From: Parcubacteria group bacterium GW2011_GWA2_47_26
Lineage (GTDB): Bacteria > Patescibacteriota > Patescibacteriia > GWA2-47-26
DNA length: 64,000 nt
NCBI GenBank assembly: GCA_001001705.1
Contig: LCOG01000002.1
Coordinates: forward strand, 20,056 to 84,055
Reading direction: 5' to 3'
The notes beneath the pieces were generated by a model. It was not told where the DNA came from. It did no database searches and saw only the letters and a program-made list of their open reading frames with translations. This document shows, in pieces, positions 3,259 to 45,544 of the stretch (the first letter of the stretch is position 1; the number at the start of each line of letters is the position of its first letter). Position numbers and translations under genes: made by a program.

Positions 3259-3335
3259 CAGCCTGACCCCGCCAAAGCGGGGGAAGGATCCCCAGCATAC
3301 AAGAATGAGATTCTTCACTATGTTCAGAATGACAC
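3259..3335. repeat. Family A palindromic element (degenerate copy) upstream of pilin gene
   Basis: GTCAGCCTGA...GGAAGGATCCCC...GATTCTTCACTATGTTCAGAATGACA. Confidence 0.5.
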
Positions 3336-3942: not shown

Positions 3943-4476
3943 ATGAAGAAACAAACATACAAGAAAGGGTTTACTTTGATCGAGCTATTGGTGGTAATTG
4001 CCATTATCGGAATCTTATCAACCTTAGCCGTTATCTCACTGGGTAACGCCAGAACAAAAGCACGTGATTCCAAGAGACTTTCGGATATGCGCAGTGTAGA
4101 GAGTGCTTTGGAAATTTATTACACGGATCAGCAGGCGTATCCAGTAGCCGCCACTACCAATCCATGTCTTATAGCCACGAGCATTGAGAATTGTTGTTTG
4201 AATAATATTTCCGGGGCAGAAGGTGGTTGGAAAACCGCCGGCAACTGCACAGGGGGTTCTACCCTGATAACAGTTCCGAACGATCCTAGAAACACAGGGA
4301 CATGGGATAACTACGTTTATTTGCGACCAGATGCCAATACTTATTCTGTTGAATTTGCTCTAGAAGCGGATCCTGATAGCACTGGTCCACTTGTGATTAC
4401 GTCATCTACCACAACGACAAACTGTCTCTCATCAGGAGGTATGACTGCAAATACAGGCGCGGCAGGATGTCCGTAG
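3943..4476 (+). CDS. Type IV pilin (major pilin candidate)
   Basis: MKKQTYKKG|FTLIELLVVIAIIGILSTLAV classic prepilin N-terminus with Glu at +5; strong GGGTGAG RBS upstream. Confidence 0.85.
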   Translation: MKKQTYKKGFTLIELLVVIAIIGILSTLAVISLGNARTKARDSKRLSDMRSVESALEIYYTDQQAYPVAATTNPCLIATSIENCCLNNISGAEGGWKTAGNCTGGSTLITVPNDPRNTGTWDNYVYLRPDANTYSVEFALEADPDSTGPLVITSSTTTTNCLSSGGMTANTGAAGCP

Positions 4477-4568: not shown

Positions 4569-5504
4569 ATGAATATAATTTTTGTCATAATACTTGGCCT
4601 TGTCGTGGGCAGTTTTTTGAATGCCTATATTTTTCGTTTGCATAGAAGTACAACTCTTAACCCTTCCCTGCATAACCCCCTCCAACTCCCCCTTATCTTA
4701 AGGGGGAGAGATCGATCACCCCCCCCTCTTAGGATAAGAGGGGGTGAGGGGGAGTTACGAAGTGTCTGGCGCGGCAGGTCATACTGTCCAAAATGTAAAA
4801 AACCCTTAGCCTGGTATGAACTGATTCCAGTTCTGTCGTTTATTTTACAGTTGCGCCGTTGTCGCGGCTGTAAGCAAAGGATTGATTGGCAGTACCCGGT
4901 GGTGGAGTTGAGTACGGCAGTTCTGTTTGTGCTGGCTTATCTAGCACAAAGAATTATGAATCAGGCCGTAATTCATGATTTCCTATTCCTGATTCAACAA
5001 CTGGTAGCCTGGTACTTGCTTTCCGTCCTTGTCATCCTTTTCGTTTTTGATCTCCGCTATGGCCTAGTGCCGGATAGAATGGTGTTGCCTGCGATTGTGA
5101 TAGCGTTTTTTAGCATGGTCATCCTAAATGCAGTGAAGGATCCCATGATTCCCGATATAGACGGGATTCTTCGCTTCGCTCAGAATGGCACAAACCTCTA
5201 CGTTCTCTTAGCCATCGCTGTCGGCGCCGGATTTTTTGCTTTACAATACTACGCTTCAAAAGGCCGCTGGCTTGGCGCTGGCGATATTCGTATTGGCGCT
5301 TTAATGGGAGCAATGTTGGGCTGGCCGCTGATTATTGAGGCACTGGTTCTATCCTACATGATCGGCGGAGTCGTTGGACTGCTATTGATTGCAACAGGTA
5401 AAAAGCGTTTTGGCCAAACTGTGCCTTTAGGAACATTTTTAACTCTGGGCACAGCAATAACTTTTTTATATGGCGAACAAATTTGGCATTGGTATTGGGG
5501 ATAA
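4569..5504 (+). CDS. pilD: Prepilin peptidase PilD (A24 family); carries an in-frame family E palindromic element
   Basis: CPKC...CRGC tetracysteine motif before multiple TM helices, A24 peptidase core; ORF track starts at 4467 but hydrophobic N-terminus MNIIFVIILGLVVGSF starts at ATG 4569. Confidence 0.8.
   Translation: MNIIFVIILGLVVGSFLNAYIFRLHRSTTLNPSLHNPLQLPLILRGRDRSPPPLRIRGGEGELRSVWRGRSYCPKCKKPLAWYELIPVLSFILQLRRCRGCKQRIDWQYPVVELSTAVLFVLAYLAQRIMNQAVIHDFLFLIQQLVAWYLLSVLVILFVFDLRYGLVPDRMVLPAIVIAFFSMVILNAVKDPMIPDIDGILRFAQNGTNLYVLLAIAVGAGFFALQYYASKGRWLGAGDIRIGALMGAMLGWPLIIEALVLSYMIGGVVGLLLIATGKKRFGQTVPLGTFLTLGTAITFLYGEQIWHWYWG
4671..4766. repeat. Family E element (two hairpin units) within pilD
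   Basis: CATAACCCCCTCCAACTCCCCCTTATCTTAAGGGGGAGAG...CCCCCCCTCTTAGGATAAGAGGGGGTGAGGGGGAGTTACGAAGTG. Confidence 0.8.
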
Positions 5505-6144
5505 TGGGCGCGGGCCTGCCCGACTGAAATTTCTGCCGTGCAAAAATTTGGGTGGTTTTACTTTGGCAGAAGTTTTAGTAGCGATGTTTATTTTTACTGT
5601 TATCACAACAGCGGTGGTTGTTAATTATCGAGTGGGCGATCGCAATACTGAATTACGTCTTGCCGCAGAAGAAGTCGCCTCGTTTATTCGCAATGCGCAA
5701 ATTATGGCCCAAGCCGGGCGGACGATAAAATTATGCGTAAGCGGTGGTGTTCAGGACAGAGTATGCGAAGGAGCCGTGGGAGTTTGTAGTGGTGGAACAA
5801 CCTGCAGTGATCAAACGCCACGCGGCGGTTATGGAATATTTTTGCAGGCTGCTAGTACCCCCCCGATATTTTTTGCAAATAGCATAAATCCAGACGAAAG
5901 AAGTTATAATGAAGGCGAAAATGTACCGACTATTAGACTACAACTTCCTTCAAAAATTAGCATCGCATCAATTAATCCGTCGTTACCGCTCACGATCGTC
6001 TTTGCACCGCCACGGCCGCGGACCTGGATAAATAATAACAGTGACATTGTAGAGGCACGCATCATCTTACAGCATGCCGATACTGGTGCGACACGTACCG
6101 TAATTATCAAAAGCGTGAGCGGCAGAATAGAAGTTAATCCGTAA
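5470..6144 (+). CDS. Pseudopilin / minor pilin (GspH/FimT-like); true start possibly TTG at 5539 giving leader MGG|FTLAEVL
   Basis: GGFTLAEVLVAMFIFTVITTAVV prepilin motif. Confidence 0.65.
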   Translation: MANKFGIGIGDNGRGPARLKFLPCKNLGGFTLAEVLVAMFIFTVITTAVVVNYRVGDRNTELRLAAEEVASFIRNAQIMAQAGRTIKLCVSGGVQDRVCEGAVGVCSGGTTCSDQTPRGGYGIFLQAASTPPIFFANSINPDERSYNEGENVPTIRLQLPSKISIASINPSLPLTIVFAPPRPRTWINNNSDIVEARIILQHADTGATRTVIIKSVSGRIEVNP

Positions 6145-6262
6145 TCCCGTTAGAAGCCGCGGTCGCGTTATTATCTGGCACAATATTTATGCAGAGGGTC
6201 AATTTTACCAAAATAAATCTAACCGGCAGGGCGGAGAGACCGCAACCTGCTTCTCACGGGAT
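6144..6262. repeat. Family B hairpin element filling the intergenic junction and ending on the AT of the next start codon
   Basis: ATCCCGTTAGAAGCCGCGGTCGCG ... GAGACCGCAACCTGCTTCTCACGGGAT|G. Confidence 0.75.
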
Positions 6263-6848
6263 GAAAAAAGGACAAGGACTGTTGGAAACCATTGTCGCGC
6301 TTGGCATTATTATGACCGGGCTTATGGCTACGATTACTCTTGTGATTTCTAATTTGCGCGCGCAGCGCGATAGCGCGAGCCGGCTTGTTGCGGTAAATTT
6401 GGCGCGCGAGGGTGTTGAGGTCGTGCGAGCAATTCGGGATACGAATTGGCTTGCTGGGAGTGATACTTGGGCAGGTATTCTGCGGGGTAGCGACACCACG
6501 GCCGTGCTCCAGTTTGAGCCATCGACCTTGAGCTACGAGCTCAACTATGACCCGTCCGGTATAGACAATGTGCAAGCGCAAATTTGTAAATCCAGCGTCG
6601 AAGACCACAGAGGAGTGTATGTTCAGCCGGGGCCATGTGGTCGTCCTGGTTTAGAACCTACGCGATTTCGGCGCCTTCTTAATGTAACGAGTATAAAGTG
6701 CCGTGACGATGGCGCTTTGAGTGTCGCATGTGTTGAACTGGGGTCTGATACTGTAGTGGGTATAACAGTGAATTCTGCTGTGCGATGGGACGAAGGCGGA
6801 CAAACAAAAAATGTGGAAATTATAGAAAAGCTATATGACTGGCGGTAA
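6261..6848 (+). CDS. Pseudopilin (PilV/PilW-like minor pilin)
   Basis: MKKGQG|LLETIVALGIIMTGL prepilin-like N-terminus with Glu+5; ORF track start 6189 lies inside the repeat element, ATG 6261 is the likely start. Confidence 0.6.
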   Translation: MKKGQGLLETIVALGIIMTGLMATITLVISNLRAQRDSASRLVAVNLAREGVEVVRAIRDTNWLAGSDTWAGILRGSDTTAVLQFEPSTLSYELNYDPSGIDNVQAQICKSSVEDHRGVYVQPGPCGRPGLEPTRFRRLLNVTSIKCRDDGALSVACVELGSDTVVGITVNSAVRWDEGGQTKNVEIIEKLYDWR

Positions 6849-10489: not shown

Positions 10490-12355
10490 GTGATACATAT
10501 TATGCTTTCATCAGTTGATGAAATAAAAATACGACTGGATATTGTTGATTTTATTTCGACGTATGTGCAGTTAAAAAGAGCAGGCGCCAATTTTAAGGCG
10601 CTTTGCCCTTTTCATACTGAAAAAACGCCATCATTCATGATCTCCAAGGCAAAGCAGATGTGGTACTGTTTTGGTTGTAATGAAGGCGGGGATATTTTTA
10701 AGTTTTTAATGAAGATGGAAGGATTGGATTTTCCCGAAGCCCTAAAAATTTTAGCGGATAAGGCCGGGGTGGAGTTGCCCAAATACGACAAGCGGCTTGA
10801 AAGTCAAAAAAATACTCTACTAGAAATTCTGCGGCTAGCAGTAGAATTTTATTCAAAACAGTTGCATGCTCCGGCAGGACAGTCGGCTTTGAATTATTTG
10901 CAAAGGCGCGGTTTATCCGAAAATGTGATCAATCAGTTTGCCTTAGGTTATGCGCCGGATTCTTGGGATGCTCTTACTAACACCTTGCGTGCGCGATTTA
11001 AACCTGAAGACATATTTGCAGCCGGCCTTGTTGTGAAGAAAAATAGGGACGTTTCTAATTTTGCAAAGCAAAATTTAGAGACGTCCCATTTTTCCTCGTA
11101 CTACGACCGTTTTCGTCATCGGATTATGTTTCCCATCCGTGATGTCAACGGCAATGCAGTGGGCTTTACAAGTCGGCTTTTGGACGAGAAACGCGCTGAA
11201 GGCAAGTATATTAATACCCCCGAAACCATGCTCTACAACAAAAGCCGCGTGCTTTATGGGTTGGATTTAGCGCGCCAAGCTATGCGCCAATTGAATTACG
11301 CCGTGATTGTAGAGGGCAATATGGACGTGATTGCCTGCCATCAGTTTGGCATGTCTAATGTGGTGGCCGCCTCCGGCACTGCCATGACCATCGATCATCT
11401 TAGATTGCTCAAACGCTATACAAATAATCTTGCCATTGCCTTTGATGCTGATCCGGCTGGCGTCAGTGCCGCGAAACGCGGTATTGATCTTGCTCTGCAA
11501 GAAGGAATGAGGGTCAAGATTATTACAATTCCCAAAGATTGCGGCAAGGATCCCGATGAATGTATTCGTAAGAATAAAAAGGCTTGGGCCATTGCAGTTG
11601 GTGCGGCTCGCGAAGTCATGGATTATTATTTGGAGCGTGCAACTCGCAATTTTGATATAAAAACCGCAAAGGGTAAATCCGATTTTGCCAATCTCCTAAT
11701 GACCGAAATTAAAAAATTGCCGGATTTGATAGAACAAGATTTTTGGTTGAAAAAAGTTGCCGAGGCCTTGCGCGTTGATGATAAGTTATTGCGGGAGCAG
11801 ATGGCAAGAGTTGGTAACGCCCCTCAACCTCCTCTTAAGTTAAGAAAGGGAGTTACGCGTGAGGTGCCGGCAGAGACTAATATGCGCCCGAGGGCCGAGC
11901 TACTTTCGGAACGACTGCTTGCCCTTTTTCTGGCCGTGCCGCAATACGCGGAAAGCATCATTGAAGCTGTGCTTCCGGAGATGTTTTGTCCCGCGGGCAA
12001 TCAAGACCTTTACACCCAACTTGTGCAATGTTATACTGCTTATAATTCACAAGGCTCCGCTTCGGCGGGGGCTGATTTCAGCCAATTTTGGCATAACTGG
12101 TGCGTAAATCACGCACCAGAACTTTCATCCACAGCCGCTATTCTTGAACTTTATAAAGACAAGGAGTTTGCGGGTTGGGACGACATCCAGTTAAGGCGGG
12201 AAAAAAATTTTTTAACTAAAGAAATTCGGCGCGAATATTTACACAAGCGCCGTTTTGAGCTTACCGAAGCAATGCGCCAAGCCGAGAAAGAGGATGATAA
12301 AGCGCAGGTGGCTGAACTTACCCGCGAATTTGAGGCGCTTGCGGCGCAAGAATAG
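10490..12355 (+). CDS. dnaG: DNA primase DnaG (in-frame family F and E elements)
   Basis: CPFHTEKTPSF...CFGC zinc-binding domain, TOPRIM region. Confidence 0.9.
   Translation: MIHIMLSSVDEIKIRLDIVDFISTYVQLKRAGANFKALCPFHTEKTPSFMISKAKQMWYCFGCNEGGDIFKFLMKMEGLDFPEALKILADKAGVELPKYDKRLESQKNTLLEILRLAVEFYSKQLHAPAGQSALNYLQRRGLSENVINQFALGYAPDSWDALTNTLRARFKPEDIFAAGLVVKKNRDVSNFAKQNLETSHFSSYYDRFRHRIMFPIRDVNGNAVGFTSRLLDEKRAEGKYINTPETMLYNKSRVLYGLDLARQAMRQLNYAVIVEGNMDVIACHQFGMSNVVAASGTAMTIDHLRLLKRYTNNLAIAFDADPAGVSAAKRGIDLALQEGMRVKIITIPKDCGKDPDECIRKNKKAWAIAVGAAREVMDYYLERATRNFDIKTAKGKSDFANLLMTEIKKLPDLIEQDFWLKKVAEALRVDDKLLREQMARVGNAPQPPLKLRKGVTREVPAETNMRPRAELLSERLLALFLAVPQYAESIIEAVLPEMFCPAGNQDLYTQLVQCYTAYNSQGSASAGADFSQFWHNWCVNHAPELSSTAAILELYKDKEFAGWDDIQLRREKNFLTKEIRREYLHKRRFELTEAMRQAEKEDDKAQVAELTREFEALAAQE
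11041..11095. repeat. Family F hairpin element within dnaG
   Basis: AAATAGGGACGTTTCTAATTTTGCAAAGCAAAATTTAGAGACGTCCCATTTTTCC. Confidence 0.75.
11820..11859. repeat. Family E single unit (degenerate) within dnaG
   Basis: CCCCTCAACCTCCTCTTAAGTTAAGAAAGGGAGTTACGCGTG. Confidence 0.55.
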
Positions 12356-14217: not shown

Positions 14218-16340
14218 GCGCAGAAGTATTGTGCATGGCAATTAATTATCAACGCGAACTAAACGCCGAGCAGTTGCGTGTAGTCAATGACGGAAACGGT
14301 CCTTGTTTAGTTTTAGCCGGAGCTGGAACAGGCAAGACGCGGACCATTGTGTACCGCGTTGCTTATTTATTGGAACAAGGCATTGATCCGGGCAAGATTT
14401 TGTTGGTTACTTTTACCAATAAAGCCAGCCGCGAGATGTTAAGAAGAGTGGAAATTTTGCTTGGCCACACGCCCGAAGGTCTTTGGGGCGGAACTTTTCA
14501 TCATGTGGGCCATGCAATTTTGCGCCGTTATGGATCGCGCATCGGACTCGCGTCCGGTTTTACTATTTTAGATCAGGATGACAGCATGGAATTGCTAAAA
14601 TCAACTATGGCAGAGCAGGGCCTGTCCACTAAAAAAGATGATAAATCTTTTCTAAAACCCGAAGTATTAGATAACTTAATTAGCTTTTCTGTAAATAGCG
14701 CGCGCGCATTGCCAGAGCTTGTTGAGGAATGGATACCTAAACATGCACATCTAACGCCGGAAATTTTACGCCTCGCAAGCGCCTACGAGCAAAAAAAGCG
14801 CGAACGTAATGTTGTAAGTTTTGATGATTTGCTTTATTTCTGGCTATGCCTTTTGCGTGAGAGGCCCGAGGTGCGCGAGAGTCTAGGCGGTAAGTTTGAT
14901 TATATATTGATTGATGAATATCAGGATACAAATCGTTTGCAAGGTATGATCGTTGAAGAACTTGCTCGTCAAAGTGAAGGCGGTGGGGCTTGTGGTAAAA
15001 ACGTTCTTGTGGTTGGCGATGATGCCCAATCAATCTACGCCTTCCGTGCCGCGACCGTTGAAAATATTATGCGTTTTCCCGAGGTATTTCCCGGCGCAAA
15101 AATTTTCCGTCTTGAACAGAATTATCGCTCTACGCAAGCAATTCTTGATCTGGCGAACGCATGCATCGCTTGCAATCGCCGGCAATTTGAAAAGGAACTT
15201 AAAAGTGCTTGTCATCCTGAGCGAAGCGAAGGATCCCGGCCTAATCGAGAATCACGGGATTCTTCGGCCTCTGGCCTCAGAATGACAGACTATGAGGGCA
15301 CTAGGCCGGAGCTTATTGGGTGCGCTGACGCTACCCAAGAGGCTAGATTTATTGCGGGCAAGGTTTTGGAGTTTCACGACGAAGGCGAATCTCTCCTTGC
15401 AAGCGCTGTACTCTTCCGTGCGGCCTATCAAGCCATGCAGCTTGAACTAGAACTTCAAAAGCGAGGGGTGCCCTATGTTGTTCGGGGCGGTATTCGTTTT
15501 TTTGAACAAGCGCATATCAAAGACGTGGTGGCGTATCTAAAAGTGGTAGCGAATCCAACTGACGAGATTGCTTGGCAGCGTGTGCTAAAAATGGAAGAGG
15601 GAATTGGTGCAAAAACTGCCGCGGTGCTTGCGCAACGCATGATTCATAACTCCCCCCAACCCTCTCTTACCTTAAGAGGTGGTGATATAGTGAATATTCC
15701 TACCCAAAGAGCGCGGGGAAGTGAGGAGGGGTTACAAAAAGTTCTTGCCCGTATTGAAAAATTAAAATCTTTAGATAAGGTCTATAGAATGATTGATTAT
15801 TTATTAGAAGCATTTTACGAAAATTATGCCGAAGCAGTTTTTGAAAACGCGCGAGAGCGGCTTGAAGATTTAAGACAACTCGCGCTTTTTGCCAAAGAGT
15901 ACCAAGAGCTAGAACAATTTTTAGCTGATGCAACCCTTTCAGAAGGCTTTCGCGGGGAAAGAAAAGGGAACGTTTCTAATTTTGTCGAGCAAAATTTAGA
16001 GACGCTCCCTTTTCTTAATGAAGATCAAGAGCATCTAGTGCTCTCTACGATTCATCAAGCTAAAGGCTTGGAGTGGAAAAATGTTTTTGTGGTGGGTCTG
16101 ATTGATGGTCAATTTCCGCATTACAAATCTCACGGTAGCCGCGCAGAGCTCGAAGAAGAACGGCGTCTTTTTTATGTGGCAGTGACGCGCGCCAAAGAGC
16201 AGCTCTTTCTAACCTATCCCGTAACCAGTATGGGCTCGCTTGGCACAGCCGTGCACCAGCCGTCTTTATTTGTCCGCGAACTCAACCCGCATTTGTTTAA
16301 GACCATGCTGGATGACGAAGAAGTCGTCGTTGAAATATAA
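14214..16340 (+). CDS. uvrD: ATP-dependent DNA helicase UvrD/PcrA family (in-frame family A, E and F elements)
   Basis: Walker A AGAGTGKT, helicase motifs through VTRAKEQLFL. Confidence 0.9.
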   Translation: MSAEVLCMAINYQRELNAEQLRVVNDGNGPCLVLAGAGTGKTRTIVYRVAYLLEQGIDPGKILLVTFTNKASREMLRRVEILLGHTPEGLWGGTFHHVGHAILRRYGSRIGLASGFTILDQDDSMELLKSTMAEQGLSTKKDDKSFLKPEVLDNLISFSVNSARALPELVEEWIPKHAHLTPEILRLASAYEQKKRERNVVSFDDLLYFWLCLLRERPEVRESLGGKFDYILIDEYQDTNRLQGMIVEELARQSEGGGACGKNVLVVGDDAQSIYAFRAATVENIMRFPEVFPGAKIFRLEQNYRSTQAILDLANACIACNRRQFEKELKSACHPERSEGSRPNRESRDSSASGLRMTDYEGTRPELIGCADATQEARFIAGKVLEFHDEGESLLASAVLFRAAYQAMQLELELQKRGVPYVVRGGIRFFEQAHIKDVVAYLKVVANPTDEIAWQRVLKMEEGIGAKTAAVLAQRMIHNSPQPSLTLRGGDIVNIPTQRARGSEEGLQKVLARIEKLKSLDKVYRMIDYLLEAFYENYAEAVFENARERLEDLRQLALFAKEYQELEQFLADATLSEGFRGERKGNVSNFVEQNLETLPFLNEDQEHLVLSTIHQAKGLEWKNVFVVGLIDGQFPHYKSHGSRAELEEERRLFYVAVTRAKEQLFLTYPVTSMGSLGTAVHQPSLFVRELNPHLFKTMLDDEEVVVEI
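15211..15287. repeat. Family A element within uvrD (encodes HPERSEGS...)
   Basis: GTCATCCTGAGCGAAGCGAAGGATCCC...GGGATTCTTCGGCCTCTGGCCTCAGAATGAC. Confidence 0.8.
15647..15692. repeat. Family E single unit within uvrD
   Basis: CATAACTCCCCCCAACCCTCTCTTACCTTAAGAGGTGGTGATATAGTG. Confidence 0.6.
15958..16016. repeat. Family F element within uvrD
   Basis: GGAAAGAAAAGGGAACGTTTCTAATTTTGTCGAGCAAAATTTAGAGACGCTCCCTTTTCT. Confidence 0.75.
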
Positions 16341-16515: not shown

Positions 16516-16794
16516 ATGTTACGGAAAAAGAAGCAGTGTGTTAATTGCTTTAATGTGCTGGGCGATCCGACGCGGGCGCGGATATTGGAGGCCATTAAGC
16601 GTCGACCCTTGAATGTGCGCTCTATTTGCGCCTTATTTGATTTGCGCCAGCCAACAATTACCCATCACCTCCAGACCCTGTACGCCGCCGGCTTAATTAC
16701 CCGGCAAAAACACGGTCGAGAAGTTGAATATAGTTTTAATAAAGATTATCCCTGCGGCAAATGCAATATCTTTGCCATCCCATTGCAGTTTTAA
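16516..16794 (+). CDS. ArsR/SmtB-family HTH transcriptional regulator
   Basis: LGDPTRARILEAI...ICALFDLRQPTITHHLQTLYAAGLI winged-helix signature. Confidence 0.75.
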   Translation: MLRKKKQCVNCFNVLGDPTRARILEAIKRRPLNVRSICALFDLRQPTITHHLQTLYAAGLITRQKHGREVEYSFNKDYPCGKCNIFAIPLQF

Positions 16795-16803
16795 AGGTAT
16801 TCG

Positions 16804-16923
16804 TCCCGTTAGAAGCCGCGGTCGCGATACATTGGAGAGCTAAATATTATGCAAAAGGTCTATATTATAACAACAAACATTAACCAGCAGATCGGGAAGA
16901 CCGCGACCTGCTTCTAACGGGAT
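16804..16923. repeat. Family B element between the ArsR-family gene and nifS, ending on nifS ATG
   Basis: TCCCGTTAGAAGCCGCGGTCGCG ... GAAGACCGCGACCTGCTTCTAACGGGAT|G. Confidence 0.8.
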
Positions 16924-18331
16924 GAACGAGAAACGCACAGTATATCTTGATCATGCCGCGGCCACACCTCTTGATCCGCAAGTTAAAGAGGCTATGTTGC
17001 CATATCTGGGCGAACAATATGGCAACCCCTCGGCAATCTATGCGCCGGGGCGCATTGCTCGAGAAGCTTTGGATAATGCGCGCGAGACAGTAGCACAGGC
17101 TTTAAATTGCACCGCCGCCGAAATTATGTTTACCGGTAGCGGCACCGAGTCTGCTAATCTGGCCATTTTCGGCGTCGCACGAGGGTATCGTCGTGACCAA
17201 GTCACTGCCGCAGGCGCAACCCGTGACTTGGTCACAAAAGGCCACATCATCACCACCAACATTGAACATCATGCTGTTTTAAATTCCTGCAAAGCCCTTC
17301 AAAACGACGGTTTTGAAGTTACTTATTTGAAAGTAGATCATGACGGGCTTGTAACAGCCGAGCAATTTAAAGCCGCTATTCGGCCGGACACGATTTTAAT
17401 TTCCATCATGTACGCCAATAACGAGATTGGCACAATTGAGCCGATACATGAACTCACGCGCGCAATGCAAGAGCGCAAAAAAGAACTCGGACGCAAGCCA
17501 AATGACCCCCCATTTTTTCATACTGATGCCTGTCAGGCCGCGGGATATTTAGATATTGATGTGAAGAGCCTCGGGGTGGACCCCGTTAGAGGCAGGTCGC
17601 CCCAAGGTGACCGTAGCACTGCCTCTAGCGGGGTGGCCTCTAGCGGGGTGGATTTAATGACAATCAATGGAAGCAAGATTTATGGGCCCAAAGGCACTGG
17701 TGCTCTTTTTGTGCGCCGTGGCTTGAAACTGCAACCGCTAATTTATGGGGGCGGACAAGAAATGAAATTGCGCTCTGGAACAGAGAATGTGGCTGGTATT
17801 GTGGGGTTGGCCACGGCGCTTAAAATTGCGACGCAACTACGCGATAAAGAGGGGCAGCGCTTAATTGCACTGCGTGATCAACTGCTTACTGGCATTATGG
17901 ATCGCATTCCAAAGGTGGTATTAAATGGACACGCCACCAAACGTTTGCCGAACAATGTTGATGTGTCAATTTTAGACATTGAAGGCGAAGCCATGCTTTT
18001 GTATCTGGATGAGCATGGTATATATGTATCAACCGGCAGCGCTTGTGATTCCCAAGCTCTGGATCCCTCGCATGTGATTTTGGCTCTAGGCAAGCCCTAT
18101 GAATTCGCGCACGGCAGTATCCGGTTTACTTTGGGGCGCGCGACTAGCGCAGCAGATATTGATTATGTATTGGATGTCCTGTCGCAGATTGTAAGCACCC
18201 TGCGCAAAATATCGCCGGTGCGCATAGATGTGAATGCAACCGGTATAACTGCTAAGACCGCGTTTGTTGGGGACGGTCTGCCGCATTTCGTAAAACAGCA
18301 GAGTAATAGAGGAAAAAAGGACCGCCTCTAA
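16922..18331 (+). CDS. nifS: Cysteine desulfurase NifS/IscS (class V aminotransferase) with in-frame family D and C elements; stop codon lies inside a family F element
   Basis: PLP-binding region, TGSGTESANLAI, active-site Cys loop STGSACDS. Confidence 0.9.
   Translation: MNEKRTVYLDHAAATPLDPQVKEAMLPYLGEQYGNPSAIYAPGRIAREALDNARETVAQALNCTAAEIMFTGSGTESANLAIFGVARGYRRDQVTAAGATRDLVTKGHIITTNIEHHAVLNSCKALQNDGFEVTYLKVDHDGLVTAEQFKAAIRPDTILISIMYANNEIGTIEPIHELTRAMQERKKELGRKPNDPPFFHTDACQAAGYLDIDVKSLGVDPVRGRSPQGDRSTASSGVASSGVDLMTINGSKIYGPKGTGALFVRRGLKLQPLIYGGGQEMKLRSGTENVAGIVGLATALKIATQLRDKEGQRLIALRDQLLTGIMDRIPKVVLNGHATKRLPNNVDVSILDIEGEAMLLYLDEHGIYVSTGSACDSQALDPSHVILALGKPYEFAHGSIRFTLGRATSAADIDYVLDVLSQIVSTLRKISPVRIDVNATGITAKTAFVGDGLPHFVKQQSNRGKKDRL
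17192..17235. repeat. Family D element (GTGACCAAGTCAC doublet) within nifS
   Basis: GTGACCAAGTCACTGCCGCAGGCGCAACCCGTGACTTGGTCAC. Confidence 0.8.
17575..17657. repeat. Family C element within nifS (encodes VDPVRGRSPQGDRSTASSGVA)
   Basis: GTGGACCCCGTTAGAGGCAGGTCGCCCCAAGGTGACCGTAGCACTGCCTCTAGCGGGGTGGCC with duplicated terminal arm. Confidence 0.8.
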
Positions 18332-18369
18332 TTTTGCAGAGCAAAATTTAGAAGTGGTCCCTTTTTCCT
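18313..18369. repeat. Family F element containing the nifS stop codon and the iscU ORF 5' end
   Basis: GAAAAAAGGACCGCCTCTAATTTTGCAGAGCAAAATTTAGAAGTGGTCCCTTTTTCC. Confidence 0.8.
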
Positions 18370-19058
18370 TGAATCTGCCTAATCTGTTTATGATTATCAC
18401 ACCATCCGACCTCAAAACCTCTGATGTAGTGCATCCCACGACTGGCCAAAAGTGGGTCTATTCCGATGTTGCACGCGATCACTTTTTTAATCCGCGCAAT
18501 CTAATGCTCAAAGATCCTAAAGACGGCGAATATGACGCCGTGGGCGTAGTTGGGAGTCCGGCCTGCGGTGATGTCATGACCATGTGGCTTAAAATTGACA
18601 AAGCAGACGAGCGCATCTACAAGTTGAAATGGCGGACATTTGGCTGCGGCAGTGCGATTGCGGCAACTTCCATGTTTTCCGCCATGGTTATGGAAAATGG
18701 AGGCAGGACAATTGACGAAGCGCTTAAAATCACTCCTCAAGATATAACCGAGCGTCTTGGCGGTTTACCCGGCCGCAAAATTCATTGTTCTGTGTTGGCG
18801 GATAAGGCCTTTCGAAAAGCTATCAACAATTATTTTCGTACAACTCACCAACATCAGCGCATTGTTGTGGAGGGCGCAAAGGTGATTGATACGGTATTGA
18901 ATATAACTGACCGCGATATTGAAGAGGCTGTGCTTGAAGGCGCGACTACCCTTGAGGAAGTGCAAAATAAACTCAAGGTTGGCGTGGGCTCGCCAGAGTC
19001 AATCCCGGAGCTTGAGCAGTTAATAAGATTTTATAGCGAAAAATATTATGACGGATAG
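18354..19058 (+). CDS. iscU: IscU/NifU-type Fe-S cluster scaffold with C-terminal extension (start uncertain, possibly 18390)
   Basis: YSDVARDHFFNPRN, three conserved Cys (GSPACGD, FGCGSAIA, HCSVLA). Confidence 0.8.
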   Translation: MVPFSLNLPNLFMIITPSDLKTSDVVHPTTGQKWVYSDVARDHFFNPRNLMLKDPKDGEYDAVGVVGSPACGDVMTMWLKIDKADERIYKLKWRTFGCGSAIAATSMFSAMVMENGGRTIDEALKITPQDITERLGGLPGRKIHCSVLADKAFRKAINNYFRTTHQHQRIVVEGAKVIDTVLNITDRDIEEAVLEGATTLEEVQNKLKVGVGSPESIPELEQLIRFYSEKYYDG

Positions 19059-19633: not shown

Positions 19634-20605
19634 ATGACAATAGGGGAGGCTTTGAAGTGGGGCATAAAAAAACTCACTGGCTCTGGGGTGGACCCCGTTA
19701 GAGGCAGGTCGCCTCAAGGTGACCGTAGCACCGCCTTTGGCGGGGCGGCCTCTAACGGGGTAGATTCTCCTGCGCTGGATGCGGAGGTTATTTTAGCGCA
19801 TGTGCTCGGTGTTCCCCGCGCCGAGCTCTATATCCACCCCTTGACCACTCTACTACCGGCAGAAGCGGCGACATATAAAATTTTGATCAAGCGGCGTTTT
19901 AAGCGCGAGCCCGTCGCCTATATTACGGGTCATAAAGAATTTTACGGCATGGATTTCATCGTGGACAAATCTACGCTTATTCCTCGACCGGAAACCGAAA
20001 TGCTCGTGGAGGAAGCGCTAAAGGCGGTTAAGGCTAGGAACACAAAGACATTGTGTGTTGTTGATGTTGGCACTGGTTCGGGTTGTATTATTGTATCCTT
20101 AACTAAAATATTAAACCAAATAAGCCGCCACAAGACCTTGCATTTTTTTGCCACAGAGATCTCACCGCAAGCTCTTAAAATAGCCAAGCTCAACGCCAAA
20201 CGCCATAGTCTTGCTGATAAAATAGTTTTTAGAAAAGGCTATTTGCTCAAACCGATCTTATCCAATCTAGAAAAAACGGTACCGCAATCAAGATTATTGA
20301 TTACGGCAAACTTGCCCTATTTGCCTACAGCCGAGTGGCGGCGCGCCATGGAAGACGTGCATTATGAACCGCGCCAAGCTCTGGATGGCGGTAAAGACGG
20401 ACTAGAATACTACCGGCATTTGTTTGAGCAATTAAAATCCTGGCGCGGCATTAAAAAATTTGCTAACGTGGCCGTGCTCGCTGAAATTGATCCGCATCAG
20501 GTTAATGAATTTACAACTCTGATAAAATCATTTTTCTCGCGAGCCAGTTTATCAATCAAAAAAGATCTGGCCAGCCTTGATCGAGTTGCGATCGCGGTAC
20601 TATGA
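19634..20605 (+). CDS. prmC: Release-factor glutamine methyltransferase PrmC/HemK (in-frame family C element)
   Basis: VVDVGTGSGCI SAM motif, NLPYLP (NPPY-type) motif. Confidence 0.8.
   Translation: MTIGEALKWGIKKLTGSGVDPVRGRSPQGDRSTAFGGAASNGVDSPALDAEVILAHVLGVPRAELYIHPLTTLLPAEAATYKILIKRRFKREPVAYITGHKEFYGMDFIVDKSTLIPRPETEMLVEEALKAVKARNTKTLCVVDVGTGSGCIIVSLTKILNQISRHKTLHFFATEISPQALKIAKLNAKRHSLADKIVFRKGYLLKPILSNLEKTVPQSRLLITANLPYLPTAEWRRAMEDVHYEPRQALDGGKDGLEYYRHLFEQLKSWRGIKKFANVAVLAEIDPHQVNEFTTLIKSFFSRASLSIKKDLASLDRVAIAVL
19687..19762. repeat. Family C element within prmC
   Basis: GGTGGACCCCGTTAGAGGCAGGTCGCCTCAAGGTGACCGTAGCACCGCCTTTGGCGGGGCGGCCTCTAACGGGGTAGA. Confidence 0.8.
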
Positions 20606-26807: not shown

Positions 26808-26816
26808 GGTATGCAA

Positions 26817-27020
26817 TCCCGTTAGAAGCCGCGGTCGTTGGTTTGTGGAGTAGATAATATTCATATGCAGAAAGGTCAAATGGTTTTAATAAATAACCTC
26901 GCAGGGCGGGCGACCGCGACCTGTCCCGTTAGAAGTGTTGTTCTAACGGGTAATCAATCAGGAGTCTGGGGAGTGTTCAGTATTATGGGCACTTCTAACG
27001 GGACCTGCTTCTAACGGGAT
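26817..27020. repeat. Family B element (expanded/composite) ending on the ATG of the PrgI-like gene
   Basis: ATCCCGTTAGAAGCCGCGGTCG ... GGCGACCGCGACCTGTCCCGTTAGAAGTGTTGTTCTAACGGG ... ACTTCTAACGGGACCTGCTTCTAACGGGAT|G. Confidence 0.75.
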
Positions 27021-27444
27021 GCAACAATTCGTCGTCCCCCAATTCATTGATGTTGAGGATAAGATCATCGGCCCGATTACCACGCGGCAGTTTATTATTA
27101 TGCTTGTCGTGGGACTGGCAATTTTTATCTTCTATAAAATACTGGCCTTTATTCCTTTTGTAATCTCGGCAATCCTTTTGTTCGGTGCCGGAGGAGTAAT
27201 TGCATTCTTGCGCATTAATGGTCAACCCTTTCATTTTTTTCTGCTTAACGTCTTTCAGACTTCGCGCCGGCCAAAATTAAAAGTTTGGAACAAAGAACTG
27301 ACTGACGCGGAATTAAGAGAAAGATTAACTGCTCCACTGCCGCCGCATCCACTGCCGCCGCCGCGCAAAGAATTGTTGACCACTTCACGGCTGAACGAGA
27401 TAGCGCTGGTCGTGGACACTGGCGGTGTTTATACGCCGGAATAA
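27019..27444 (+). CDS. PrgI/VirB3-like small membrane protein (T4SS component candidate)
   Basis: 141 aa, two hydrophobic helices, immediately upstream of and overlapping VirB4. Confidence 0.5.
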   Translation: MQQFVVPQFIDVEDKIIGPITTRQFIIMLVVGLAIFIFYKILAFIPFVISAILLFGAGGVIAFLRINGQPFHFFLLNVFQTSRRPKLKVWNKELTDAELRERLTAPLPPHPLPPPRKELLTTSRLNEIALVVDTGGVYTPE

Positions 27445-28147
27445 TATGCCCGAAATGCAATCAAAAAAATTAGCCGGAGCCAAACCCGGGCCCGCAGTCC
27501 AGCAGTATCTTGATATTGCGGAAATAAAAGAAGATGTAGTGGTTTTAAAAGATGGAACCCTGCGGGCCGTGCTCGCGGTTGCTTCAGTAAATTTCGGTTT
27601 AAAGTCCGAAGATGAACAAAATGCCACCATCTCCGCCTATGTGCAATTTATCAATGCTCTAGAGCATCCTTTGCAGATCGTGATTCAGTCCCGCAAGCTT
27701 AATATTGATGAGTATATAAATCGCCTGGAGCGCGCGGAGCATGAGCAGACCAATGATCTTCTGCGTCTGCAGATTACAAACTACCGCTCTTTTATTAAAG
27801 AATTGGTTGAACTCGGCGAAATAATGTCTAAACGTTTTTTTCTTGTTGTGCCATACTCGCCATTATCCGATAAACGCAAAGGGTTTTGGTCTAGGTTTTC
27901 AGAGCTTTTGCGTCCGCTAGTTACCGTGCGCATTCGAGAAGAGCGTTTTCGCGCTCATCGCGGAGCTCTTTTGCAAAGAGTCTCACATGTGCAAAACGGG
28001 CTGTCTTCCATTGGGCTGAAATCACAAGCGCTGGATACCCAAGCTTTGATTGAGTTGTACTACAGGGTTTATAATCCTGATATCGCTGAAGTGGAAAAAT
28101 TGCAGGATCTGGCTAAGATTAAGACTGAAGAGTCGTACGCGGTCTGA
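27425..28147 (+). CDS. virB4: VirB4/TrsE/PrgJ-family ATPase, N-terminal portion (split gene)
   Basis: N-terminal domain typical of Gram-positive VirB4 homologues; ends at TGA directly before a family G element. Confidence 0.65.
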   Translation: MFIRRNNMPEMQSKKLAGAKPGPAVQQYLDIAEIKEDVVVLKDGTLRAVLAVASVNFGLKSEDEQNATISAYVQFINALEHPLQIVIQSRKLNIDEYINRLERAEHEQTNDLLRLQITNYRSFIKELVELGEIMSKRFFLVVPYSPLSDKRKGFWSRFSELLRPLVTVRIREERFRAHRGALLQRVSHVQNGLSSIGLKSQALDTQALIELYYRVYNPDIAEVEKLQDLAKIKTEESYAV

Positions 28148-28149
28148 TT

Positions 28150-28235
28150 ATGTAGCATGTAGCCTGTAACATATAACACAAGATTGAAATTGAGTACGCT
28201 CTTGGGTTACATGCTACATGTTATAAGTTTACATG
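28150..28235. repeat. Family G hairpin element separating the two virB4 ORFs
   Basis: ATGTAGCATGTAGCCTGTAACATATAACACAAG...TTACATGCTACATGTTATAAGTTTACA. Confidence 0.7.
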
Positions 28236-28239
28236 ATTT

Positions 28240-30114
28240 ATGCCTTTACTCGGTAAGAAAAAACCCCCGATAGCTATCGGGGCGCCCCAGGTGACTGTGG
28301 CGGCGCAAAAAGCCAAAGCGGCCGAAGAGCGCATCGTGCTTGAAGAAGAGCGCGTATATCGGCGCGGTGTAGTTTCAGTGCGCGATATTATAGCGCCGGC
28401 TTCCATGCAGCTGACGCCTTCTTTTGTGAAGCTGGGCGATGTTTTTGTGCGCACCATTTTTGTCGTTTCTTATCCTCGCTATATCGCAGTGGGTTGGTTT
28501 ACGCCCATTGTTAATTTGCCGGTAACTTTGGATATTGGTATGTTTTTCTATCCGGTTAAGTCCGATGTTATTTTGAAGCAATTGAAGAAGAAAGTCGGCA
28601 CGCTTGAGGCCCAAGTTATTGCTGATTCGGAAAAAGGCGCTCCGCGCGATCCGATTCGCGAGACCGCCTTGCGCGATATTGAAAAGTTGCGCGACGATTT
28701 GACCCAAGGGACAGAAAAGTTTTTCCAGTTCGCTCTTTATGCGACAATTTACGCAAAAGACAAAGCCGAGCTGGAAAAGCTGACCGAGGATATAGAAGCG
28801 CTCTTCGGCAGCAAATTGATTTATTCTAAAAAAGTATTTTTCCAGGCGGAGCAAGGCTTTAATTCCACAATTCCGTTAGGCAATGACGAACTCATGATTG
28901 CCTTTAACATGAATTCCTCCCCGATTGCCTCTTCGTTTCCGTTTATCTCCGCGGATTTAACCTCGGATAACGGCATTCTCTACGGCATTAACCGTCACAA
29001 CAATAGCCTCATCCTGTTTGATCGTTTTTCTCTGCAGAATGCCAATTTCGTGGTCTTTGCCACCTCTGGCGCCGGTAAAAGCTATACCATGAAATTGGAA
29101 ATTTTGCGCTCTTTAATGCTTGGCACAGACGTAATTGTGATTGACCCGGAAATGGAATACAAGCATTTATCCGACGCGGTTGGCGGCACCTATATAAATA
29201 TTTCCCTGGCGGGCGAGGCCAAAGTAAATCCTTTTGATCTTTCGCGCCCGGTTGGCGAAGAGGTTAAGACCGAAGATATAATCCGTTCCGCGGTTATCAC
29301 GATTAAAGGATTGTTAAAAATAATGCTTGGTCAATTTACCCATGAAGAAGATGCCCTGATGGATCGCGCGCTTATTGAGACTTATGCGAAAAAAGACATT
29401 ACCGCCACCTCTGATCTTTCTAAAGTGGAGGCGCCAATTATGTCTGATTTGCAAGAAGTGCTGGAGGGCATGGAAGGCGGGGCTTCTTTGGCCGAGCGGC
29501 TGAAAAAATATACGACTGGAACATTTGGCAGTCTTATCAATAGCCCGACCAATGTTGATATGCGCAACCAGTTAGTGGTTTTCTCTGTTCGCGATTTGGA
29601 GGACGAGTTGCGGCCGATTGCCATTTACTCGTTAGTCAATTATATCTGGAATGTGGTGCGCTCGGAGCGCAAGAAAAGAATTTTGACCATTGATGAGGCT
29701 TGGTGGCTTATGCAAAATGAGGATTCGGCAAAATTCATTTTTGCGCTTGTTAAACGCGCGCGAAAATATTATCTTGGAGTAACAACCATTACGCAGGATG
29801 TAAACGACTTCCTGCTTAATCCTTACGGTAAAGCGATTGTAACCAACTCCGCCCTCCAGTTGCTTTTGAAGCAATCGCCCGCCGCTATCGATCTAGTCCA
29901 GCAGACCTTTATGCTTACTGAAGGGGAGAAATATTTACTTTTGGAATGTGCGGTTGGAGAAGGCATCTTTTTTGCCGGCGCAAAACACGCCGCTATAAAA
30001 GTCGTGGCTTCCTACGCCGAAGATCAGCTTGTTACGACCGACCCTCGCCAACTGCTTGAGCTGGAGGCGGCTAAGAAAGAATTTGAGGAACAAATGATGC
30101 CTAAGGGCCTATGA
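28240..30114 (+). CDS. virB4: VirB4/TrsE/PrgJ-family ATPase, C-terminal ATPase portion (split gene)
   Basis: Walker A FATSGAGKSYTM, Walker B ILTIDEAWWLM, conserved C-terminal motifs. Confidence 0.85.
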   Translation: MPLLGKKKPPIAIGAPQVTVAAQKAKAAEERIVLEEERVYRRGVVSVRDIIAPASMQLTPSFVKLGDVFVRTIFVVSYPRYIAVGWFTPIVNLPVTLDIGMFFYPVKSDVILKQLKKKVGTLEAQVIADSEKGAPRDPIRETALRDIEKLRDDLTQGTEKFFQFALYATIYAKDKAELEKLTEDIEALFGSKLIYSKKVFFQAEQGFNSTIPLGNDELMIAFNMNSSPIASSFPFISADLTSDNGILYGINRHNNSLILFDRFSLQNANFVVFATSGAGKSYTMKLEILRSLMLGTDVIVIDPEMEYKHLSDAVGGTYINISLAGEAKVNPFDLSRPVGEEVKTEDIIRSAVITIKGLLKIMLGQFTHEEDALMDRALIETYAKKDITATSDLSKVEAPIMSDLQEVLEGMEGGASLAERLKKYTTGTFGSLINSPTNVDMRNQLVVFSVRDLEDELRPIAIYSLVNYIWNVVRSERKKRILTIDEAWWLMQNEDSAKFIFALVKRARKYYLGVTTITQDVNDFLLNPYGKAIVTNSALQLLLKQSPAAIDLVQQTFMLTEGEKYLLLECAVGEGIFFAGAKHAAIKVVASYAEDQLVTTDPRQLLELEAAKKEFEEQMMPKGL

Positions 30115-40140: not shown

Positions 40141-40228
40141 TCCCCCTTAGGTTAAGGGGGAGTGAAAGGGGGTTACGAGACGCTCATAACCCTCCCCAGC
40201 CCTCCCTTAACTTAAGGGAGGGAGAAAG
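40141..40228. repeat. Family E double unit, intergenic upstream of htpX
   Basis: TCCCCCTTAGGTTAAGGGGGAGTGAAAGGGGGTTACGAG...CATAACCCTCCCCAGCCCTCCCTTAACTTAAGGGAGGGAG. Confidence 0.7.
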
Positions 40229-44218: not shown

Positions 44219-45544
44219 ATGATTACTCTATTTATCTTTCTCGCCGTTCTATCTGTCCTTGTTTTTGTCCACGAATTTGGACATTTTTTTGTGGCAAAAA
44301 AGGCCCGATTGCGTGTTGATGAGTTTGGCATAGGTTTTCCTCCGCGGCTTATTGGAATCCGTAAAAAAAATGTCATCCTGAGGGAGTCCCGCGCCTGCGG
44401 GACGACGAAGGATACCGCACATAAAAGAACGGGATTCTTCACTGCGTTCAGAATGACGAATTGGGAGGTTGTTTGGGGCCACCCCGTTAGAGGTAAGACG
44501 CCAGAGGCGTCTGCCGATGCCCTCGGGCATCGGACCTCTAACGGGGTTGACCCGCACGCGGGCGGAACGCTTTATTCTATCAACCTGTTTCCTTTCGGCG
44601 GTTTTGTGAGAATCAAGGGAGAGTCTGGAAATGAGCGACTGGATCAGGATAGTTTTGCCAGCCGCGGCGCCGGAGTCAGAATTATGATTGCCGCGGCCGG
44701 AGTATTGATGAACGCGCTTTTGGCAGTGGTGCTCATTGCCGCGGGTTATAGACTAGGCTTTCCCCAAGCTATCTCGGATCAACCGTCAAAGTACGCGCAA
44801 ATCTCTGATCAGCATATTGAAGTCATGGGAGTCTTGCCAGATAGTCCCGCGGCGCAATCCGGTCTTAATGTTGGCGATCGTATTTTGGCAGTCGGTGTAG
44901 CGTCAGAGACAGCCGCTTTGCGTGAGCTTCAGAACTCCGAGGACTTTCGCAATGTTACAAAGGAGTTAGTCGGAGAGTCGGTAACGCTTGTTGTTGAATC
45001 TGATAAAGTGCGGCGAGAAATTCAAGTGACCCCTAAAATTTTAGAGCAAACTGGCAAGGCCGGAATAGGCGTGGCTATCGTTGATGCCGCAATAGTCCGC
45101 TATCCTTTATGGGTGGCATTGCCCAAAGCTTTTGAAACCGTGGGGATTTTAGCGAAAACGATTGTCGTAGCTTTTGCCGATATTGTCCGCGATGCTCTGC
45201 TTGGTCGGCCAGTTACGGCTGAACTGGCTGGTCCGGTTGGTATTGCCGTACTCACTGGTCAGGCCGCACGCATGGGTTTTGTATTTTTATTGCAATTTAT
45301 TGCGATCCTGTCCATTAACTTGGCCATTCTTAATGTTCTGCCGATTCCCGCGCTGGATGGCGGCCGCATCCTGTTTATTCTGATTGAAAAGCTAAGGCGT
45401 CGTCCTGTCGCGGTAAAAGTGGAAATGATGATTCAGCAGATCAGTTTTGTTTTGCTTCTGCTCCTGATTATTTTTGTGACCTATCGCGATCTCGGCCGCT
45501 ACGGCGGACGAATTACTGAATTTTTTAAGAACATGGTACAATAG
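44219..45544 (+). CDS. rseP: RseP-like site-2 protease (M50) with PDZ domain; adjacent in-frame family A and family C elements inside the first loop
   Basis: HEFGHF zinc motif, PDZ GLNVGDRILAVG, LDGG motif. Confidence 0.9.
   Translation: MITLFIFLAVLSVLVFVHEFGHFFVAKKARLRVDEFGIGFPPRLIGIRKKNVILRESRACGTTKDTAHKRTGFFTAFRMTNWEVVWGHPVRGKTPEASADALGHRTSNGVDPHAGGTLYSINLFPFGGFVRIKGESGNERLDQDSFASRGAGVRIMIAAAGVLMNALLAVVLIAAGYRLGFPQAISDQPSKYAQISDQHIEVMGVLPDSPAAQSGLNVGDRILAVGVASETAALRELQNSEDFRNVTKELVGESVTLVVESDKVRREIQVTPKILEQTGKAGIGVAIVDAAIVRYPLWVALPKAFETVGILAKTIVVAFADIVRDALLGRPVTAELAGPVGIAVLTGQAARMGFVFLLQFIAILSINLAILNVLPIPALDGGRILFILIEKLRRRPVAVKVEMMIQQISFVLLLLLIIFVTYRDLGRYGGRITEFFKNMVQ
44372..44457. repeat. 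Family A element within rseP (GAGGAGTCCCGC subfamily)
   Basis: GTCATCCTGAGGGAGTCCCGCGCCTGCGGGACGACGAAGGAT...GGGATTCTTCACTGCGTTCAGAATGAC. Confidence 0.8.
44478..44550. repeat. Family C-like element within rseP, directly after the family A copy
   Basis: CCACCCCGTTAGAGGTAAGACGCCAGAGGCGTCTGCCGATGCCCTCGGGCATCGGACCTCTAACGGGGTTGACC. Confidence 0.7.

Follow-up and report, generated by a model that had tools for sequence, protein, structure and literature searches.

A 64,000-nucleotide stretch of the genome of Parcubacteria group bacterium GW2011_GWA2_47_26 (contig LCOG01000002.1, a scaffold from a Rifle aquifer metagenome, positions 20,056 to 84,055 of the forward strand; hereafter the window, with coordinates counted from its first nucleotide) carries four copies of a short hairpin-forming repeat, each of which stops exactly where a protein-coding gene begins. 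[quoted passage not shown] A preliminary description of the window, made from its letters alone, had reported the four copies, and all were found where it placed them, each ending ...CTTCTAACGGG flush with an ATG. The three plus-strand copies are indeed family B, but the fourth represents a sister subfamily with the same outer arms and a different interior. The elements and the features that adjoin them are as follows.

6145 to 6260, plus strand: family B copy 1, T-CCCGTTAGAAGCCGCGGTCG...GACCGCAACCTGCTTCTCACGGG (nhmmer E=1e-17, and fold)
6261 to 6848, plus strand: open reading frame (ORF) downstream of copy 1, with the pilin-like N-terminus MKKGQGLLETIVAL; its ATG directly follows the last G of the element
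16804 to 16921, plus strand: family B copy 2 (nhmmer E=7e-21; minimum free energy (MFE) -50.4 kcal/mol, z -4.6)
26811 to 26816, plus strand: left target-site duplication of copy 3, ATGCAA, the duplicated start of the PrgI-family gene
26817 to 27018, plus strand: family B copy 3 (nhmmer E=4e-12)
26924 to 27002: element of the same superfamily nested in copy 3, with its own 5-bp duplication ACCTG (26919-26923 and 27003-27007)
27019 to 27444, plus strand: PrgI-family gene (PF12666), whose ATG is that of the right ATGCAA copy and is flush with copy 3
57968 to 58074, minus strand: copy 4, of the sister subfamily, with outer arms CCCGTTAGAAG / CTTCTAACGGG and an interior unrelated to family B

Copy 1, with a single mismatch in its arms (CTTCTCACGGG), fills the space between the TAA stop codon (6142-6144) of an upstream pilin-like ORF and the ATG at 6261, flush with both; Pfam N_methyl matches this upstream neighbour, and the downstream ORF had no Pfam match. 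Copy 2 separates an ArsR-type ORF (stop at 16792-16794) from the ATG at 16922 of a class-V aminotransferase/NifS-like gene (Pfam Aminotran_5), and copy 3 precedes the PrgI-family gene, whose start is placed at ATG 27019 by public gene calls on two contigs. Copies 1-3 have their arms in common (left T-CCCGTTAGAAGCCGCGGTCG, right GACCGCGACCTGCTTCTAACGGG). Copy 4, flush with the ATG (57967) of a minus-strand ORF of 766 amino acids (aa), has only the outer 12-13 nucleotides (nt) of these arms, and the junction CTTCTAACGGGATGAAC is, as reported earlier, identical there and at the nifS-like gene. The motif CCCGTTAGAAG, an 11-mer core taken with at most one mismatch, occurs 16 times in the window against 0.95 expected; the additional matches are superfamily relatives, three of them inside coding sequences (CDSs), one nested in copy 3 and one a 47-nt mini-hairpin. 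The terminal core of the superfamily can be written (T)CCCGTTAGA...TCTAACGGG.

Two samples extended the census to more than 200 loci from many metagenome-assembled genomes of Patescibacteria. A scan of one-genome-per-species bacterial contigs (genome_contigs) used an exact 20-mer of the left arm, was blind to the right flank and matched more than 108 stretches, whose record titles are mostly Patescibacteria (Paceibacterota, Nomura-, Taylor-, Giovannoni-, Komeili-, Lipton- and Yanofskybacteria), with a minority automatically labelled as other taxa. An independent sample, from metagenome_contigs, used only a 23-mer of the right arm. The claim that the element always abuts an ATG held well beyond the window, in 103 of 107 copies from the left-arm scan and in 115 of 118 from the right-arm scan, where 2 more abut a GTG; chance would give 1/64. 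Taken together, an ATG directly follows 218 of 225 copies and a GTG follows 3 more. Additional copies far from start codons, the finding that the preliminary description had itself named as evidence against its reading, did not materialise in this census. At least 206 of the 226 codons after elements open ORFs of at least 60 aa, and several of the shorter ORFs encode real small ribosomal proteins. The downstream genes are diverse, mostly housekeeping genes with canonical N-termini (ssb, topA, murG, dnaA, secY, tig (trigger factor), frr, pgk, aminoacyl-tRNA synthetase and ribosomal protein genes), and no functional theme or gene family was common to them. Orientation relative to the gene is fixed, with the start codon on the side of the right inverted repeat (IRR) in 218 cases and of the left inverted repeat (IRL) in 2. 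The elements are non-coding and measure 45, about 79-82 or 110-125 nt.

The flanks of these copies account for their exact position. An exact duplication of 4-6 nt (mode 5), arranged as ATGNN-T-[CCCG...CGGG]-ATGNN, is present in 80 of 107 and 66 of 107 copies with scorable flanks (146 of 214, ~68%), and many copies that lack an exact duplication differ by a single base. The duplicated bases follow the individual gene: ATGGA, ATGCAA, ATGTA, ATGGG or GTGGA can be found on both sides. Within the window, copy 3 shows the repeat (ggtATGCAAt then CCCG... on the left, ...CGGG then ATGCAAcaa on the right; 26811-26816 versus 27019-27024), copy 2 has a decayed version (ATTCG versus ATGAA) and copy 1 has no recognisable left copy; on the far side of copy 4 the 5-mer GTCAA matches ATGAA at three of five positions. 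The element does not, then, supply a start codon, as had been suggested. The ATG, or at any rate the TG within it, belongs to the gene and has been copied as a target-site duplication of 4-6 bp, and flushness is an automatic consequence of that duplication. Two subsidiary claims stand in part. The left end does lie close to the upstream stop codon in copies 1-3 (0, 9 and 9 nt), but this is no general property, and the string TTTTAA(A)GGTAT is common to the left flanks of copies 2 and 3 but is merely an upstream stop followed by the (decayed) duplicated start; across 107 copies nothing is conserved upstream of -6.

The suggestion that the element is mobile was borne out by orthologous sites seen both occupied and empty. 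At rpsR, locus L032 reads ATGAA-T-element-ATGAAACAAG, and the empty sites in L009, L053 and L104 read ATGAAACAAG; further empty versus occupied pairs are L021 versus L086 (secY) and L060 versus L100. Tandem or nested copies each have a duplication of their own (L172, L027, L061 and window copy 3), as in the array ATGGAT-B-ATGGAT-B-ATGGAT of L172. Duplications combined with empty sites are the signature of transposition with a staggered cut. The terminal T...A pair could be counted within the element, leaving a 4-bp duplication TGNN, or outside it, giving the 5-bp ATGNN, and single cases favour each (L022 versus L057).

Duplications and empty sites are also what a purely selfish MITE would leave. 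On that account, a transposase prefers ATGRA and insertions at starts survive because the duplication regenerates the ORF; genic insertions are lethal, other copies are lost by deletion, the conservation of the arms comes from recent spread and ascertainment, and the element plays no part at the level of the host. The sequence preference is real. A purine follows the ATG at +4 in 88% of occupied starts against 66% of unoccupied starts with a well-placed -10 box, and an A stands at +5 in 80% against 54% of the same sets (Fisher p about 1e-9). The preference reaches beyond starts, since several duplications at off-start insertions are near-misses of ATGAA (ACGAA, ATTGA, ACTGA); of the other subfamilies' 46 members, 36 abut a start codon with one of their ends and 7 have a clear duplication elsewhere. 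Mismatches in the left copy strike the ATG and the two bases after it at similar rates, which suggests neutrality; a requirement for the upstream ATG was rejected, this codon being absent in about 30% of copies and decaying like its neighbours. Both samples, moreover, were ascertained on one perfect arm.

We nevertheless consider the purely selfish account unlikely, as an intrinsic preference for ATG-R-A exists but does not by itself account for copies being confined to start codons. The 1.72 Mb of loci contain ATGRA at about 470 unoccupied starts, about 1,500 outside long ORFs and about 7,200 inside them, so that the preference together with lethality of genic insertions would place about one-third of copies at starts rather than the observed 97%. 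Non-ORF sites outnumber unoccupied starts by ~3:1, yet almost none is occupied. Other palindromic families occupy intergenic and coding DNA of the window, and hairpin insertions as such are thus tolerated there. The 218:2 orientation speaks against this account as well. We infer that start restriction needs either a further targeting determinant or persistence only where copies work.

The main weakness of the selfish account lies in the arms. The IRL has about 21 nt and the IRR about 24 nt; the terminal inverted repeats pair perfectly over the outer 12 bp, followed by an asymmetric CC / GACCTG internal loop and an inner arm of 6-7 bp. Because each sample fixed one arm only, conservation of the other arm is not an ascertainment effect, and in more than 200 copies the arm left free by the scan diverges by less than 1% (about 99% conserved where interiors have diverged by 30-50%). 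The interior, at 26% GC, is highly variable between copies and unalignable between subfamilies. Of ssb, topA and murG, ssb has the most copies, in nine genomes. The identity of their interiors spans 0.46-0.97, which is also the range with the topA and murG copies included, and it is higher where the first 240 nt of the ssb gene are more alike, as expected of one old, vertically inherited insertion. In these pairs of ssb copies, identity over the 43 arm bases is 98-100% (murG 1.0; topA 0.91-1.0). A dead MITE should decay uniformly, and pairing alone would allow wobble or compensatory changes. The arms appear instead to be functional where they sit and to be read sequence-specifically, and their conservation in situ points to some reader of the hairpin or of its DNA. 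Between subfamilies, the two arms show matching differences (AGAAG/CTTCT, AGAGAT/ATCTCT, AGAAAT/ATTTCT, AGAGG/CCTCT).

Folding agrees with the earlier claim that the AUG would be caught in a long stem: the A and U of the AUG are paired in the predicted folds of the element in the window and of ~95% of copies in the census; for a transcript begun at the left ATG, the median MFE is -42 kcal/mol and the 5' tail measures 4 nt in 105 of 159 copies. Pairing of the interior beyond the arms was no better than in shuffle controls and showed no covariation. The riboswitch-like RNA switch that had been proposed did not find support, as the interior is variable without conserved pairing, there is no tie to a gene family and Rfam gave no match, either at gathering score for the whole window or at E up to 10 for the element. 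The element may occlude or regulate the start. A mobile translational operator or cis-regulatory hairpin, a reading near to that of the preliminary description, in which a sequence-specific RNA-binding protein or the ribosome acts on the stem to set the rate of initiation and brings many housekeeping genes under common control, would fit the conservation of arm sequence beyond the needs of pairing, the fixed orientation, the paired A and U, the purine-rich sense strand of the interior (168 of 192 copies) and the many core genes among the targets. We regard such an operator as quite unlikely: no candidate binding protein was identified, the targets are without a functional theme, covariation is absent from the interior, the wobble test described below is ambiguous, and a stem of about -42 kcal/mol is too stable for a simple thermosensor or breathing switch.

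The genes at which family B resides have their own peculiarities of expression. As had been observed, no Shine–Dalgarno (SD) sequence accompanies the window elements. The loci contained no 16S rRNA gene with which the arms could be compared for complementarity. Over loci L001-L228 and the window, TATAAT-like -10 hexamers show a sharp maximum 6-8 nt before the first ATG of an ORF, with counts of 141, 58 and 54 where the background is about 20, and just 12% or so of ORFs have an SD-like core, which suggests that leaderless or otherwise SD-independent initiation is dominant in these Paceibacteria-type genomes. A -10 hexamer stands at the same spacing before the left ATG copy in 26 of 83 elements. 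An upstream ORF ends within 45 nt of the element in 53% of copies, and its stop codon lies 1-2 nt from the stem in 23 of 194. Stem-loops at a 5' end, such as those predicted here, would protect against 5'-end-dependent decay. Two other candidates were tried and rejected. An outward promoter with transcription starting at the second ATG is disfavoured by the hexamer at -12 to -7 (GCTTCT), which is unlike the TATAAT boxes of these genomes. A conserved small ORF or leader peptide, encoded by the interior ATGCARARGGTC motif or by an upstream ORF (uORF) from the left ATG, is contradicted by even frames and scattered stops: only 16 of 83 such uORFs end at the UAA in the arm, and ATG-to-ATG distances modulo 3 are distributed over 21, 32 and 30 copies, with stops present.

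Relatives of the element inside genes bear on how its RNA might be handled. Three lie in CDSs of the window.

17581 to 17647, plus strand: superfamily relative in the nifS-like CDS (C-CCCGTTAGAGG...), with flanks GTGGA/GTGGA; it adds 72 nt, or 24 in-frame codons, without a stop
19693 to 19759, plus strand: relative in a PrmC/HemK-like gene, 91% identical to the nifS-like one, with flanks GTGGA/GTAGA; it adds 72 nt, in frame
44482 to 44545, plus strand: relative in the gene of an M50 (RseP-like) protease; the insert is in frame, adds 69 nt and has a decayed repeat at its flanks

These in-CDS relatives (C-CCCGTTAGAGG...CCTCTAACGGG-G) are stop-free and encode peptides such as DPVRGRSPQGDRSTA...SNGV. 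In the NifS-like protein, a solved cysteine desulfurase from the Protein Data Bank (PDB) aligns straight across the duplicated 'GVD' and leaves residues 222-241 unaligned. To judge by their reading frames, the relatives look translated, not skipped.

It is against this background that neutralisation of the hairpin at the RNA level has to be weighed. Endonucleolytic trimming at the 3' foot of the hairpin would yield a leaderless messenger beginning with 5'-AUG, or the ribosome would shunt or hop across the foot of the stem, leaving from the upstream AUG or from an upstream stop codon and arriving at the downstream AUG, which is identical to the first. Parallels are known from T4 gene 60, from mitochondrial byps and from shunting in cauliflower mosaic virus (CaMV). 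The leaderless architecture of these genomes, the rule of exact flushness, the matched 'take-off' and 'landing' copies of ATGNN, the upstream stops next to the stem and the conserved arm sequence are all congenial to such schemes. Several observations are not. With the upstream ATG lost in about 30% of copies and decaying like neutral sequence, the ribosome cannot depend on hopping from it; uORFs are random in frame and in the position of their stops; the duplication alone is enough to produce flushness; and the in-CDS relatives have the same core in frame and stop-free, and are thus read through rather than cut or skipped. Both the trimming and the hopping versions seem to us very unlikely.

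The reading that we think probable places family B, as a subfamily, within a non-autonomous foldback (MITE-like) superfamily found in Paceibacteria-type CPR bacteria, one that targets start codons and whose arms are kept for a function. The element enters the first five base pairs of an ORF (consensus A-T-G-R-A) and duplicates them, presumably by way of a staggered cut made by an enzyme of the transposase type. One copy of the start codon thereby stays beside the native promoter or upstream gene, and the other, flush with the 3' arm, opens the gene. The element would then be transcribed as the extreme 5' end of a messenger that is, in most cases, leaderless and SD-less, and its arms would close some 115 nt up in a hairpin of about -42 kcal/mol, leaving no more than about 4 nucleotides free at the 5' end. 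Such a hairpin would pack the insert away and probably protect the 5' end, leaving the downstream AUG as a functional SD-independent start. Selection would keep the arm sequence because a trans-acting factor reads it, whether the mobilising enzyme, an RNA-binding or processing protein, or the ribosome. Persistence or targeting would thus be tied to a function of the transcribed hairpin at the 5' ends of SD-less messengers.

A number of points weigh against this interpretation. First, an element whose outer ends are symmetric would not usually combine an asymmetric target with one orientation, and a single transposase does not usually make duplications of varying length, here 4 to 6 bp. Second, the 1.72 Mb of loci (flanking sequence) and the viral contigs yielded neither an autonomous element nor a transposase with these ends, and the viral contigs contained no copies of the element at all; pairs of terminal inverted repeats 400-5000 bp apart turned out to be neighbouring small elements or chance matches. 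Third, each sample required one perfect arm, and fully decayed copies would escape both. Fourth, a test of G·U-compatible substitutions gave 25 compatible against 13 disruptive transitions, with changes in the right arm favouring sense RNA and those in the left arm not, an ambiguous outcome. Finally, with the A and U of the AUG paired where a very stable stem has its foot, the sequence gives no route by which a ribosome would reach this codon, and in-CDS relatives with the terminal core must be translated through, which argues against a factor that cleaves every core-bearing RNA.

A bolder proposal, which we put forward tentatively and hold to be doubtful, is that the arms signal a dedicated, undescribed system coupling a mobile hairpin to translation initiation. 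In one version, integration would be guided to start codons by the initiation complex (the ribosome, or RNA polymerase on leaderless genes) and not by DNA sequence. In the other, the hairpin would be recognised so that a flush AUG works without an SD sequence or a free 5' end, by trimming to a new 5'-AUG, by shunting or by enhancer binding. Either version, if true, would make the element a 'start-codon cassette' on which CPR bacteria depend for the expression of core genes.

Family B is small and non-coding, with terminal inverted repeats and target-site duplications matched by empty sites, features that characterise MITEs in general (PMC10969869). REP/BIME elements, which are mobilised by RAYT, and the IS200/IS605-derived PATEs differ in making no target duplication and in lying 3' of a fixed tetranucleotide or in extragenic 3' regions; membership of these groups was rejected, given the gene-specific duplication on both sides and the position 5' of ORFs. 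Integron attC sites, IS200/605-type ends and REP elements likewise do not fit, given the order of the core motifs or the true duplication seen here. The Correia elements of Neisseria (CREE) are dispersed, non-coding repeats of about 100-150 bp with terminal inverted repeats and a target duplication, co-transcribed with adjacent genes as long hairpins that can alter the fate of the messenger. Family B resembles them in size range, terminal inverted repeats, target duplication, number of dispersed copies, lack of coding capacity and presumed transcription as a hairpin together with its gene. It differs in duplicating ATGNN rather than TA, in lying at start codons in 97% of cases rather than at varied intergenic sites, in its 218:2 orientation where Correia elements take either, and in the conservation of its arms in orthologous copies. 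Rickettsia palindromic elements (RPEs) are likewise mobile palindromes of a reduced genome, and our in-CDS relatives sit in frame within genes as they do; unlike RPEs, family B itself lies outside the ORF, has lengths in all three frames and is full of stops.

The bypass elements of T4 gene 60 and of Magnusiomyces mitochondria ('byp') are hairpin inserts with identical take-off and landing triplets, and byps are regarded as mobile elements similar to GC clusters. Family B is likewise a hairpin-forming insert between matched copies, here of ATGNN. Bypassing, however, takes place during elongation within ORFs, whereas the repeat here is the start codon, its upstream copy is dispensable and the in-CDS relatives look translated. 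Stem-loops that stabilise messengers at the 5' end (ompA, ermC-type), the initiation-bridging hairpin of T4 gene 38 and the CaMV shunt are fixed features of single genes. With the first of these family B has in common a very stable predicted stem within about 4 nt of the predicted 5' end, and with the latter two the bringing together of flanks at the foot of a stem; unlike any of them it is a cassette that moves, with a predicted influence on decay or initiation.

Full-text searches of the literature, including searches with the arm sequences themselves, returned no description of the element, and the words 'start codon' are absent from a 2024 review of prokaryotic MITEs. New here is a MITE with start-codon targeting and apparent host-level constraint. 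To our knowledge, no described bacterial MITE targets start codons, and no described bacterial repeat element combines start-codon insertion with arms that stay unchanged over long periods. Transposable elements that home to a functional landmark of genes with single-base precision are rare. Here, hundreds of essential genes (ssb, topA, dnaA, secY, murG and ribosomal protein genes among them) have a predicted hairpin of about -42 kcal/mol flush to their AUG, and the arms of this hairpin are conserved to a higher degree than the proteins. The lineages concerned are many and belong to the ultra-small CPR bacteria of groundwater, a bacterial radiation that is among the largest and the least understood. 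This raises a testable question about translation initiation in SD-poor, leaderless-type CPR bacteria. The element may also prove useful as a natural tool, a compact cassette tolerated at any start codon, as a clean marker for true start codons in CPR annotation and as a way into the search for whatever enzyme or RNA-binding factor reads the arms.

Some individual copies and relatives deserve separate mention. One hairpin is of minimal size and lies away from start codons, nested within another repeat.

58833 to 58879, plus strand: minimal hairpin of 47 nt, CCCGTTAGAGAT...ATCTCTAAACGGG, with a perfect duplication, ACGAA, on both sides

A 45-nt, arms-only version in L024 (minus strand, around 5406) is among the very few copies off protein starts. 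It lies between two tRNA-like genes (judged by eye), abutting the first at its 3' end and separated by 2 nt from the 5' end of the second, and has no flanking duplication. In L111 (minus strand) a TATAAT box directly adjoins the left end of the element and there is no left ATG copy; transcription would begin inside the left arm, so the full hairpin could not form, and this copy may be an escape variant. Tandem arrays at one start codon (two B copies in L172; also L027, L061, L025 and L221) combine the same or different subfamilies, with another ATGNN between them. The point just before ACCTG-CTTCTAACGGG in the right arm of family B has been used for nesting in the window (26919-27007) and in L098 (about 4009-4240), from unrelated genomes, and may well be a secondary target that is hit repeatedly. 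Copy 4 gives, with its far end, TTGAC to a good sigma-70-type promoter in the region 58075-58130, TTGACG-17 nt-TATACT, facing the plus-strand gene at 58131, and may have been recruited as a -35 box. Copy 3 heads a conjugation or type IV secretion-like cluster (27019-30114; also in L229) that encodes the PrgI-family protein, a TraC-like protein and a DUF87/AAA_10/TraG P-loop ATPase.

The window is rich in other repeats. At least four further palindromic families are present (GTCATCCTGAGCG...CGCTCAGGATGAC; GGGACCGCCTCTAATTTTGC...; TAACCCC..CTTAAG..GGGGAG; GTGACCAAGTCAC), with examples at 3283-3333, 5117-5190, 11038-11118, 15210-15265, 18311-18391, 33815-33934, 34376-34456, 40141-40224, 46515-46605 and 55407-55480. 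Several palindromic repeats lie within ORFs. The nifS-like gene has one at 17191-17236, and there the alignment with the PDB structure leaves a second extra segment, at residues of about 91-104. Tandem repeats of 9 bp (GCAGATTAA and CTGCCTAAT/CTGCTTACT-type) and a 27-nt coding repeat (ATKEDLKAF-like, in an ORF), all unrelated to the hairpin family, occur at 47509-47575, 62745-62798 and 52537-52659.

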